Assembly: GCF_013004595.1 (NCBI RefSeq)
Contig: NZ_JABEMC010000005.1
Location: 1 to 64,000 of the forward strand
Source of the DNA: Brevibacterium luteolum
GTDB lineage: Bacteria > Actinomycetota > Actinomycetes > Actinomycetales > Brevibacteriaceae
Length of the DNA stretch: 64,000 nucleotides
Direction of reading: 5' to 3'
Made by a program: the position numbers and the translations under genes. Numbering within the stretch: the stretch's first letter is position 1; every line of letters starts with the position of its first letter. The notes below the pieces were generated by a model that made no database searches, was not told where the DNA came from, and saw nothing but the letters and a program-made list of their open reading frames with translations. Shown here in pieces: positions 48,967-57,010 of the stretch.

Positions 48967-49146
48967 GGCCTGCAGATGCCAGCCGCACCATGTCCGCTGC
49001 GCCGGAGTCCCGCAGGGCTCTGAGCGCGGTTCTTCCCATCCTGGTGCGCGGTTCGGATTCTCTCGGGAGAAGGTCGGCTCGTCGGCGAGCTGACCACCTG
49101 CCCTCAAGCACGCGGTAACGCGCTGTCCACAACTGTGGGGGTCAGG

Positions 49147-49175
49147 TTGACTGGCTCAGCCTACCGAAGCATAAT
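49147..49175 (+). promoter_or_regulatory. Near-consensus sigma-70/SigA promoter
   Basis: TTGACT (49147-49152), 17-nt spacer, CATAAT (49170-49175). Confidence 0.75.
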
Positions 49176-49181
49176 CTTGCT

Positions 49182-49222
49182 ATAGCTCCTCGCCGTCCTC
49201 CGGGACTGGCGAGGCTTTTTCT
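49182..49222 (+). ncRNA. Candidate ~40-nt leader RNA / intrinsic terminator between the promoter and the NYN RBS
   Basis: CCTCGCC-GTCC-TCCG-GGAC-T-GGCGAGG followed by CTTTTTC; it sits between the -10 and the GAGGAGG RBS. Confidence 0.55.
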
Positions 49223-49233
49223 TAGAGGAGGCA

Positions 49234-49899
49234 ATGGTGCCGGAACTTCTGCGAGCCGTCGTTGTGGTCGATTATCAGAACGTTCACCTGACTGGGCATG
49301 GTGTGTTCGCGCCCGGTGAGCCGAAACACAAGAGCTTGATCGATCCCGGTCGATTCGGACGCAAGCTGATCCAGGTCCGCAATTCGAAACAGCGTCATTC
49401 GAAATACCACGCAGACTTGAGCAGGGTCGTTGTCTACCGCGGTCTGCCTATCCCCGAACATGACCCGGATGATTATGCGCGCAATCAAGCTCAGAAGGCT
49501 GAGTGGATGAAGGATCCCTTGGTCGAAGTAAATTACCGTCCGCTGAAGTACCAAGTGCTCCGTGACCGAGACGGACGCCCTGCATCTGACTCAAACGGCC
49601 GGCAGATAGTAACGAGCAAGCAGGAGAAGGGTATTGATGTCCTATGCGCTTTGGCACTCGTCCGCGAGGCAATGATGGAGGGTGTTGACCTTGTGATCCT
49701 GGCCTCGCAGGACACCGATCTAGCCCCTGCACTGGAGGAGGCACACTCCGTAGGCGGCGCAAAGATTGAGACGGTCTCCTGGTACGAACCGAAGAACTAT
49801 CGGAGCCGCGAAATCCGCTCTTCCGCAGTCCGGTTGTGGAACACACGTCTGTCGGAATCAGACTTTCGGGCGTGTCTCGATACACGGTCCTACGCCTGA
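49234..49899 (+). CDS. NYN domain (PIN-like) ribonuclease
   Basis: VVVDYQNV, KQEKGIDV, LASQDTDLAPAL acidic motifs intact; codon usage is AT-richer than the flanks. Confidence 0.88.
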   Translation: MVPELLRAVVVVDYQNVHLTGHGVFAPGEPKHKSLIDPGRFGRKLIQVRNSKQRHSKYHADLSRVVVYRGLPIPEHDPDDYARNQAQKAEWMKDPLVEVNYRPLKYQVLRDRDGRPASDSNGRQIVTSKQEKGIDVLCALALVREAMMEGVDLVILASQDTDLAPALEEAHSVGGAKIETVSWYEPKNYRSREIRSSAVRLWNTRLSESDFRACLDTRSYA

Positions 49900-55263: not shown

Positions 55264-56049
55264 CTACGGGCTGGCGATAGAGGCGGTTAACAGCTCCGCA
55301 CATCTGTAACGGTCGAAGCCAGTGGGAAGGTCAGAATTGTCGGCCGTTCGCAGCAAATAGCGCGTGAGGCGTTCGCTCACACGCGCCGCATCGAGTCGAT
55401 ATCCGCGCGGCGGGCCGTCATCGAGCGACCATGTCACGGATGGGTGCTCTTCGCGTATCTCCAGAAGTAGGGCCAGATCACTCAGGTCAGCGTCGCTTCT
55501 GCGGCTGCTCCAGCTCAGCAGTTTGAGGATCACGGCTGTTTCGACATCAGGAATTTTCGTCCGATAGAGCAATGTCTGACCTCCGCTGAGCCGTACGTCT
55601 ACCTCCGTGTCGATCGCTGGAGCGCTCAGAGCAAACGTCAGTTCAGGAAGGGCGTCGACGAGTCCGACTCCTGGCACGTTTCGAGTACTCAGGCCAGGGT
55701 TCGGGCTGAGTGAGGGCAGAAGGACGTTGATCTCCAGCTGCTGTCCACGGCCAGTGTGCTTGACAAGCTGATTCGCTCGCAGATTCTCAAAACCGCGCCG
55801 GCGCAGCTGAGTGACGAGAGAACCGACGGCTTCTACTGTCCCGACGGTTGCATCGGCGTCTCGCGTCACCCGCATGCTGCGATGCGTGACCGGATAGTGG
55901 GCCAGCAGCAATCGCACCATGAAGCCGCCGATCAGTCGGTAGTCGATGTCTGACTCAGCTGCACTGTCGAGTTCGCTCTGGGCCAGGAAGCCGAGATCTT
56001 CCGCTGGCCCGGCAGACTCCACAGAAACGCGCCGCACATTCTCAGGCAT
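55264..56049 (-). CDS. Nucleotidyltransferase, AbiEii/MenT-like type IV toxin candidate
   Basis: YRLIGGFMV, RVTRDADA (GG plus RxTxDxD), VILKLLSW..R...DLSDL. Confidence 0.75.
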   Translation of the reverse strand: MPENVRRVSVESAGPAEDLGFLAQSELDSAAESDIDYRLIGGFMVRLLLAHYPVTHRSMRVTRDADATVGTVEAVGSLVTQLRRRGFENLRANQLVKHTGRGQQLEINVLLPSLSPNPGLSTRNVPGVGLVDALPELTFALSAPAIDTEVDVRLSGGQTLLYRTKIPDVETAVILKLLSWSSRRSDADLSDLALLLEIREEHPSVTWSLDDGPPRGYRLDAARVSERLTRYLLRTADNSDLPTGFDRYRCAELLTASIASP

Positions 56050-57010
56050 CGACACCGACTTCCTTCGACAAACACATGCGAGCAAGGTGTTCGGCAGCAG
56101 CGGTCACCCGGGAGCTGCCGGCTGCACGCAGGTCGGAATAGATGAGAGGCCAGTCAACGGTCGACAGCTTTCCATCGGCATGCGCATCGAAGGCTCGCAC
56201 CGCCCATACCGTCGGGTCACGCGGGATTCGTATGCGAAGCGTCGCCGCCTCTAACGGCACTGGCACGAAGCGCAGCCCAGAAAGGTCTATCGGAGCAGAC
56301 ACGTAGATCAAGCCAACCTGCGAAACCGCGTACGGCGCCCGGGCCTCGGCTGCAACCTCACCGCTGATGAGCGGTCTGACACTCTGCCGGATCGCCTCGC
56401 CGTACGCTTCATCAACCTGGGTTGCGACTGCTTGCGGACTTCGCCATCCGAACTCGTGGGCGCCGTCGTCCCGATACTCTTCCATCCATTTTGCGAGCAG
56501 TGTGCTCCTGTCACGAACGGAGTATCCCGATTCACCGCGGTCACAATCGATCTGTGTCAAGGCCAGTGAGACAGCCTGCTGGGTCACTCCGAGCACGTCG
56601 GAGAGCTCGCGCTGGGAAACAGGCTCGCTGGTGGCGAGCAGACTTCGCATCACCGCCCACCTCACCCATGGCAGCGGGCCCCGCCGCGGCCGTTTGGTAT
56701 AACTGCGCGCTCCAGCCCGGGTTTGGCAGATCTCACGCCCGTTCAGGATCAAACGTCGAGGAGTCTCAGTGAGCAGATCGATCTCGCCGTGCCGCGCCCG
56801 ATCGACTACGCCTGCAGTCGCTGACCGTCCCGCGTAGAGAGTACGTAGCCCAGAACCGGTGGCCCGAAGCGTATGCGCTGTCACTCGCTCCTGGGCAGCC
56901 CACGGGTTCACCTCTACGGGTCGACCATCGGCAGGCGTCAGCCTCCAGGTCCCTGAGGTTCCAGGATCAACGCGCACATCGAGATCACGGAGCAGCTCAG
57001 AGATGTCCAT
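56042..57010 (-). CDS. AbiEi-like antitoxin / transcriptional regulator (wHTH plus AbiEi-type C-terminal domain)
   Basis: SQRELSDVLGVTQQAVSLAL HTH, LLAKWMEEY, LISGEVAA, VDWPLIYSDL...AAEHL; overlaps the NTase start. Confidence 0.72.
   Translation of the reverse strand: MDISELLRDLDVRVDPGTSGTWRLTPADGRPVEVNPWAAQERVTAHTLRATGSGLRTLYAGRSATAGVVDRARHGEIDLLTETPRRLILNGREICQTRAGARSYTKRPRRGPLPWVRWAVMRSLLATSEPVSQRELSDVLGVTQQAVSLALTQIDCDRGESGYSVRDRSTLLAKWMEEYRDDGAHEFGWRSPQAVATQVDEAYGEAIRQSVRPLISGEVAAEARAPYAVSQVGLIYVSAPIDLSGLRFVPVPLEAATLRIRIPRDPTVWAVRAFDAHADGKLSTVDWPLIYSDLRAAGSSRVTAAAEHLARMCLSKEVGVDA

Follow-up and report, generated by a model that had tools for sequence, protein, structure and literature searches.

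A gene for an NYN-type ribonuclease stands alone behind a promoter and a short hairpin in the genome of Brevibacterium luteolum, and this arrangement raises the question whether the hairpin is an RNA that restrains the nuclease. The DNA analysed here (the window) is a stretch of 64,000 nucleotides, contig NZ_JABEMC010000005.1, positions 1 to 64,000. A sequence-only reading of it had proposed that the promoter first yields a terminated hairpin RNA of ~40 nt, and that this RNA and the nuclease form a toxin-antitoxin or defence module that resembles type III systems.

The cassette and its NYN protein

The elements of the cassette are as follows.

49147..49152, forward strand: −35 box TTGACT, from a promoter scan; a TTG block lies at equal distance in 58 non-redundant homologue loci
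49170..49175, forward strand: −10 box CATAAT, from the same scan, with a 17-nt spacer from TTGACT
~49182-49184, forward strand: predicted transcription start, placed from the −10 box
49183..49187, forward strand: unpaired, conserved 5′ prefix TAGCT (consensus T-W-R-Y-T; 86% modal conservation)
49188..49214, forward strand: candidate antitoxin RNA core, from folding and covariation; 11-bp stem with a variable apical loop at 49199-49202 and an invariant bulged U at 49207
49215..49223, forward strand: U-tract of an intrinsic terminator that is probably leaky, where the predicted RNA of ~40 nt ends, from sequence
49225..49231, forward strand: ribosome-binding site GAGGAGG, able to pair with the U-tract in read-through mRNA, from sequence and folding
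49234..49899, forward strand: open reading frame of 221 amino acids (666 bp) for an NYN (LabA/DUF88-type, PIN-like) ribonuclease, from ORF, Pfam and fold

The features that the sequence-only reading had described hold up. TTGACT-N17-CATAAT is the best consensus site of the two promoter-like sites in 4 kb (shuffle mean 0.5). The stem is formed by the arms 49188-49198 and 49203-49214 with a TCCG loop at 49199-49202 and a bulged T at 49207, it is followed by the tail CTTTTTCTT at 49215-49223, and it folds with −21.2 kcal/mol (z = −3.89), such that none of 200 shuffles is as stable. No terminator is called at the hairpin by a simple terminator scanner, probably because of the bulge. The ribosome-binding site and the 221-residue protein with its intact acidic motifs are confirmed by the reading frame, the fold and residue conservation. 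The cassette is AT-richer than its neighbours, with a GC content of 0.56 versus 0.65-0.73 in the flanks, and the genes on either side of it encode the unrelated DctP and LysR according to Pfam. The claimed lack of a protein antitoxin gene also stands, since no partner gene is conserved across the homologue loci. Thus the layout of promoter, RNA gene, terminator and RNase gene without a protein antitoxin is present, as a layout of sequence. No RNA run covers half of the stretch; of four that were examined, two read as raw reads give 0 reads, and two read as contigs give short pieces in which the RNA ends are not visible. Upstream of the promoter, 35 nt (49079-49113) recur in a public contig whose flanks differ on either side, and they may be a small repeat at the border of the cassette. 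At a distance of 5.4 kb from the cassette, a two-gene pair (55264-57010, reverse strand, GC about 0.6) encodes a 322-residue protein that matches AbiEi_2 at the cut-off (E 3e-4) and a 273-residue partner without a Pfam match; by sequence, the two genes resemble type IV toxin-antitoxin systems of the AbiE kind.

The protein matches the Pfam family NYN (PF01936) with E 8.8e-5 and 23.5 bits, slightly below the cut-off of 24.2, while PF01936 is matched in some homologues and the Atlas clusters are assigned to NYN at 0.94-0.95. The NYN fold is present, because the AlphaFold model (pLDDT 94.8) superimposes on 2QIP with a Z score of 15.0 (rmsd 3.5, 159 residues aligned) and on the NYN domain of MARF1 with a Z score of 11.9, and the next match reaches only 8.0. 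D13, N16, E131, D135, D160 and D162 are intact, and the acidic metal-binding residues among them are conserved in 82 aligned sequences (D13 in 87%, E131 in 96%, D135 in 100%, D160 in 95% and D162 in 95%). Basic and aromatic residues, R49, R69, W91, R102, Y106, K132 and W183, are conserved as well, and their conservation makes them candidates for RNA contacts. The model and the alignment indicate a β-hairpin insert around residues 105-130 in the actinobacterial NYN clade. Fused forms are not found among longer proteins at E 1e-10, which is weak evidence. The start codon is ATG or GTG at 76 of 86 homologue loci; with such ordinary starts, strongly damped translation is not evident, which counts against a toxin-antitoxin reading. 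Four loci (L016, L019, L024 and L037) have no in-frame ATG, GTG or TTG between the hairpin and the first conserved strand, and ATC occupies the expected start position in three of them.

The hairpin at NYN loci and in bacterial genomes

Homologue loci were collected from the protein side: the best 80 of 162 genome loci, 12 loci from a sample of 400 genomes of the class and three viral loci. Two of them are cut off upstream, which leaves 93; among these, two repeat other entries and many are related to one another. The motif lies beside the NYN gene at all 93 loci, although the protein identity falls from 59% to 32%, and at 92 of them it is a leader located ~20 nt 5′ of the start codon. The exception (L086/L192) has the hairpin ~105 nt further upstream, past a second promoter-like site. 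The consensus of the motif is T-W-R-Y-T, CCCCRCC-GTCC, a loop, GGAY-T-GGYGGGG and a U-tract. Conservation at 58 non-redundant tetraloop loci amounts to 96% in the stem arms, 86% in the prefix and 40% in the promoter spacer, and at the same loci it reaches 84, 91 and 61% at codon positions 1, 2 and 3 near the N-terminus of the protein. A −10-like hexamer is located 7-8 nt 5′ of the prefix at 64 of 71 tetraloop loci; this fixed distance suggests that the RNA starts at the motif. The eight nucleotides past the stem contain 4-7 U residues at all 86 homologue loci, and 5-6 at 63 of those.

The alignment upstream of the NYN homologues, which had been suggested as a check, reveals a hairpin that is both conserved and covarying. 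In 50 distinct tetraloop sequences, which were picked by pattern so that their selection favours pairing, 99.8% of the cells are paired; none of 500 shuffles reaches this value and slid controls reach at most 63%. Six of the eleven pairs show two-sided, compensatory changes, and G-U wobbles are tolerated. At one pair, A-U and G-C are exchanged 10 times on the protein tree, which is a quick one built without careful search, and at least five of these changes are forced by well-supported branches. The bulged U is invariant and the apex varies in length. Such constancy of the lower stem, the bulge and the prefix, next to an apex that is free to vary, would be the pattern of a protein-binding site. 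No Rfam family is found for the leader in the window, where a scan to E 10 yields only a chance match to sR30 inside the ORF, and at gathering level none is found for the hairpin at 60 motif loci. A candidate RNA placed 3′ of the gene (L218) was rejected, because a leader copy is also present. Judged from these alignments, the hairpin appears to be a real conserved RNA motif, apparently uncatalogued and evolutionarily bound to the actinobacterial NYN clade.

NYN homologues occur in 12 plasmid records, and nine of the 10 that were checked have the motif. The tenth, a plasmid of Mycolicibacterium aubagnense (L412), has no motif within 1.5 kb of an NYN homologue whose catalytic motifs look intact, and this counts against the toxin-antitoxin reading. 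R1, a covariance model of the hairpin motif, gives no significant match at any of four distant NYN genes on plasmids of Methylobacterium, Rhizobium, Acidovorax and Leptospira, so that the motif seems limited to the actinobacterial clade. The distant NYN gene on the Leptospira weilii plasmid (L410:1390-1490) is preceded by a TTGACA-17-TATAAA promoter and then by two hairpins of unrelated sequence just 5′ of the start codon; other NYN clades may therefore have RNAs of their own.

R1 has a single significant match in the genome of B. luteolum itself (64.6 bits). The exact pattern is found at 22 sites in 19 of 400 genomes of the class, mostly once or twice per genome. By reading, 16 of these sites are linked to an NYN gene, which is full-length at seven and frameshifted, interrupted or a remnant at nine, and six are without NYN. 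With stricter filters, R1 matches 15 of 150 genomes of the phylum and none of the other 135 (the tally includes the unpublished G518); of nine strong matches that were read, six lie 5′ of NYN (one of them broken), two are divergent from NYN and one is a plain terminator. Among the 115 metagenome matches listed, 74 have NYN downstream, 13 match the phage contexts described below, two follow tRNAs and 26 are of other kinds, including orphans made up of promoter and hairpin, loci of phage-like appearance and three that probably match by chance. The distribution of the NYN clade is patchy: it is found in 10 of 400 genomes of the class at E 1e-20, and no DNA match to the cassette is found in 24 congeners.

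The RNA and the NYN gene are not always on the same strand. They are divergent in L355 and L356, each with its own expression signals, and convergent in L239, which represent about two or three independent events. Because the RNA is kept beside the gene and yet outside its mRNA, these loci argue for action in trans and against a pure attenuator.

The neighbourhood of the NYN gene is not conserved, since 76 upstream flanks fall into 62 clusters and 74 downstream flanks into 61. Known defence genes are detected by PADLOC within 3 kb at six of 26 loci, and restriction-modification genes and integrases by Pfam at two and three of 27 other loci respectively, as raw counts (L032 belongs to both the Pfam and the PADLOC set). 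Defence genes are thus occasional neighbours, a modest association that was counted against the toxin-antitoxin defence reading. In pairs of related loci (L105/L181/L297 versus L219, L229 versus L041, and L230 versus L325), the promoter and hairpin are nearly unchanged and the NYN gene has been lost, and the sequences break off near the start codon in L105/L181/L297, L229 and L230; L105 adjoins a 3′ fragment of tmRNA, as at an integration site. An orphan hairpin in genome G038 (L197) lies ~100 nt 5′ of a 150-residue ORF, which by eye we take to resemble Panacea/SocA antitoxins.

The hairpin in phages without an NYN gene

A new observation is that the hairpin occurs alone, without NYN, in many actinophages. 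Three patterns give 89, 29 and 6 matches in IMG/VR, 124 in all, in 32 flank clusters. Two of these contexts are NYN-linked and 30 have no NYN gene in flanks of 300-1500 nt; two clusters hold 77 of the 124 matches, and some of the contigs may derive from prophages or from hosts. Control patterns, compared with the 89 matches, give one match without the bulge, none with a permuted stem and four, from one lineage, with a non-U bulge; all five are without prefix and U-tract, and the bulge-less one is judged to be a chance match. The prefix, four bases of which lie outside the search pattern, is present in 23 of the 30 NYN-free contexts, with ~1.4 expected.

Cultured phages contain the hairpin as well. 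R1 scores of 31-55 bits are obtained for Microbacterium phages Hortus1 and Footloose, Clavibacter phage CN1A, Gordonia phages Holliday and GAL1, and Mycobacterium phages Krypton555, Myrna and prophiGD102-1, and OlinDD, Tandem, Alleb, Finnry, Phabba and Birdsong are matched by blastn only. Other blastn matches were rejected: Arthrobacter phage Tank has no model match, Gordonia phage Pupper has a partial one of 20 bits, and those that fall within coding regions of Streptomyces, Ralstonia and enteric phages cover half the length. Each of the 10 phage genomes that were searched whole has exactly one copy. No PF01936 protein is found in any of five of these genomes, and two NYN queries find no match among the 50,697 phage records of INPHARED.

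The location of the phage copies follows certain habits. tRNA genes are found in the flank of eight of the 30 NYN-free viral contexts, as a raw count, and the nearest tRNAs listed at phage motif sites are all on the strand of the motif. The motif starts at most 2 nt from a tRNA 3′ end in L104, L208 (Hortus1), L269 and L323, and ends 5 nt 5′ of tRNA-Phe in L401; in Myrna it is located within a run of 28 tRNAs, with only CTTT separating it from tRNA-Thr. A tRNA call across the hairpin of L383 is an artefact. Copies with only three U residues are located inside tRNA arrays, and in such places the hairpin is a poor terminator. Processing of the tRNAs would release it as an RNA with defined ends. 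The adjacency to tRNAs may also merely reflect a strong promoter. In Krypton555 and L314, the hairpin flanks a Ro60-type gene and a cluster of tRNA-like RNAs. These RNAs (L209:2690-3040 in Krypton555) are unannotated, have the T-arm before the D-arm and end in the hairpin or are followed by it. They escape detection by Rfam at gathering level, and we take them to be Y-RNA-like by architecture.

The two large viral clusters are one family of freshwater phages, in which whiB, a marker of actinophages, is found in four of five. In phages of the first kind, the motif lies between genes for 132 and 103 residues in the terminase-portal interval, and in those of the second kind it lies 5′ of a glycosyltransferase gene; an earlier assignment of the gene 5′ of the hairpin as a capsid gene is wrong. 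The 132-residue gene is present in five of five phages of the second kind (63-72% identity), where it is followed by unrelated hairpins; another look for the site-1 gene in site-2 phages gave none of five, on partial contigs. The unrelated hairpins in sister phages suggest that the site at the 132-residue gene needs just some hairpin, and that the motif is installed at alternative sites, once per genome. In L099 (1529-1560) and its relatives, a −10-like box, TATAAT or TACAAT, stands right after the U-tract and 6-7 nt from the ATG of the glycosyltransferase, suggesting from the sequence that the transcript of this gene may be leaderless. Two Nanopelagicaceae loci (L058 and L061) contain both NYN and the hairpin, so that the likely hosts of the freshwater phages have the system.

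A proposed RNA antitoxin with phage decoys, and other readings

The reading that we favour, and that we regard as probable to a fair degree on sequence grounds, is a type III-like RNA-protein toxin-antitoxin defence system with an NYN toxin, which phages counter with RNA decoys. The layout of the cassette, as observed, suggests that the promoter would yield mostly the ~40-nt terminated hairpin RNA and little read-through NYN mRNA. The conservation of the motif, together with the loci that keep the RNA outside the mRNA, points to an RNA that would bind NYN through the lower stem, the bulged U and the 5′ prefix and thereby keep it inactive. ToxIN is activated by loss of the antitoxin RNA, once an infection has shut down transcription in the host or drained the pool of this RNA. 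By analogy, infection would free NYN in the same way, and the freed enzyme would cut cellular and phage RNA, possibly tRNA, so that the cell is arrested. The single copy in actinophages, carried on abundant transcripts such as tRNA arrays, Ro/Y-RNA clusters and late-operon spacers, would then be a decoy that keeps NYN off. Copies in phages without NYN are as predicted for a defence system with an RNA antidote, and their placement in tRNA arrays hints at tRNA as the target of NYN. This placement also fits the proposal, made in the available part of PMC10264068, that phage tRNAs counter host tRNases.

Two further points count against this toxin-antitoxin reading with decoys. A near-invariant antidote that phages can copy should face diversifying pressure; it may be near-invariant as a mimic of the NYN substrate. 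The hairpin is also equally usable as a plain terminator at most host loci and many phage sites.

As regards the type III-like module proposed from the sequence alone, the layout, the conserved and covarying hairpin, the absence of a conserved partner gene, the patchy distribution and the opposite-strand loci speak for it, whereas membership in ToxIN or AbiF is not upheld in view of the toxin fold and the RNA type, and the motif-free locus L412 also speaks against the claim. Like this cassette, ToxIN, CptIN and TenpIN consist of an RNA gene, a terminator and an endoribonuclease gene. Type III antitoxins fold as pseudoknots and their toxins have a fold different from NYN. The protein studied here is NYN, not ToxN, CptN or TenpN, by Pfam, PADLOC and fold, and at the loci that were read a single bulged hairpin of ~40 nt lies between the −10 box and the ribosome-binding site, whereas type III antitoxins are tandem repeats according to the available part of PMC8860590. 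AbiF/AbiD-F (RF03085; RCd22 of C. difficile) is similar, as far as the accessible text goes, in that one promoter serves a short structured RNA ending in a terminator and a rarely read-through RNase gene. However, the toxin is HEPN there and PIN-like NYN here, and the hosts differ. The window protein has no Abi_2 or HEPN match by Pfam, PADLOC or fold, and RF03085 has no match in the window. Thus the NYN fold, the single hairpin and the absence of RF03085 place the system outside both ToxIN and AbiF. The available part of 10.1101/2025.04.15.648962 describes the RNA of RCd22-AbiF as acting in cis and in trans, with a motif of 36-37 nt that neutralises, and it does not mention stand-alone phage copies such as those found here. 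Phage counter-defence by RNA mimicry is described for pseudo-ToxI of PhiTE (PMC3594212, in part); escape mutants gain these mimics through the expansion of a repeat, whereas near-exact copies are a standing feature of many unrelated phages here.

On the side of the protein, NYN.COG1432 (LabA/DUF88, PF01936; 2QIP) shares the fold and the four acidic active-site residues, and the available part of PMC5499597 gives its function as unknown and does not mention an RNA partner; the present clade differs by the β-hairpin insert at ~105-130 and the linked RNA. HEC-09, an NYN defence candidate in PADLOC, has an NYN domain and gives a partial HMM match (residues 125-198, E 1e-6), but differs by an N-terminal HTH-like part, and the accessible text of 10.1101/2024.01.29.577857 describes no RNA for it. 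The same text reports no protection by HEC-09, the one NYN defence candidate encountered for which a test is reported, and this result counts against a defence role. The DUF3800-I, drum and skipping-rope motifs involve another protein and other RNAs, and NYN is not mentioned in the available main text on them. A full-text literature search, which reaches only a minority of subscription papers and leaves out the supplementary files of two motif catalogues, finds no paper on NYN with an RNA antitoxin or on the phage hairpin.

The strongest alternative is feedback in cis: NYN would bind or cut its own leader hairpin and thereby set termination or mRNA decay, toxicity would be unnecessary, and the phage copies would be sponges or substrates. 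Ribonuclease genes with autoregulatory leaders exist, the hairpin is a leader ~20 nt from the start codon at 92 of the 93 loci, and conservation at the level of sequence suits a protein-binding site under either model. We consider this alternative unlikely, because L355 and L356 (divergent) and L239 (convergent) keep the RNA outside the mRNA, and because a phage would gain little by sponging a harmless enzyme of a few percent of hosts.

It is quite improbable that the hairpin primarily serves phages as a regulatory element, which is read through or to which a factor of the phage binds, and that the host NYN behind a copy of it is a trap switched on by infection. Many phages have the motif, often between genes of like orientation, and NYN is placed behind it as behind a conditional terminator; however, unrelated hairpins take the same site in sister phages, the 30 phage context clusters are mutually unrelated so that a shared phage factor is not evident, and read-through is impossible at the opposite-strand host loci. 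Even less credit is given to a third party, an unknown actinobacterial protein that binds the hairpin, for example to stabilise RNA 3′ ends, and is used by NYN cassettes and phages alike, with NYN itself not binding. Such a protein would account for the near-invariant sequence and for the placement at the ends of phage tRNA arrays, but core-gene copies are not found (R1 has no match in 135 of 150 phylum genomes with the stricter filters and one in the own genome), and eight of the nine strong R1 matches read are NYN-linked. A mobile palindrome of the REP, PATE or MITE kind, or merely a favoured strong terminator, is the least probable and is largely refuted: the motif resembles REP and IS200/IS605 ends, which have a short 5′ prefix plus a bulged palindrome, its site varies within one phage family and it has a U-tract 3′ of the stem, yet many copies per genome are not encountered (one in the own genome, 1-2 in the 19 genomes and one in 10 of 10 phages), the spacing of 7-8 nt from the −10 box is fixed, the bulge-less form, a better terminator, is nearly absent (one chance match versus 89), and copies with only three U residues occur inside tRNA arrays.

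We see about an even chance that these loci belong to a new class of defence systems with RNA antitoxins, which is spread through Actinomycetota and uses an NYN toxin of the PIN fold. In that case, phages would have acquired the nearly universal 40-nt antidote on many occasions, and the normal processing of tRNAs would cut it out of phage tRNA arrays, where it acts as a permanent RNA-based counter to the defence. If this is true, NYN would be the third toxin fold among RNA-antitoxin systems, one clade of the large, uncharacterised LabA/DUF88 family would gain a function, RNA decoys would be a common and naturally fixed phage counter-defence beyond laboratory escape, and phage tRNA clusters would have an added reason to exist. 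The proposal is directly testable, with a 666-bp gene, a 40-nt RNA and hairpin phages already in culture, namely Myrna and Krypton555 (M. smegmatis), Holliday (Gordonia terrae) and Hortus1 (Microbacterium). Further RNA-controlled defence systems could be found by looking in phages for orphan copies of RNA motifs that are linked to a protein elsewhere, and phages may collect several such RNAs, like the hairpin and the DUF3800-IX RNA. An intergenic cluster of an IMG/VR phage contig (L166:1330-1640, G590) contains two identical TGTGGTATAATG promoter-like sites, one 5′ of an NYN-type hairpin and the other 5′ of a DUF3800-IX RNA (41.4 bits), and no DUF3800 gene is found in this 57%-complete contig; here the phage has possibly gathered orphan RNAs whose protein partners are encoded elsewhere.
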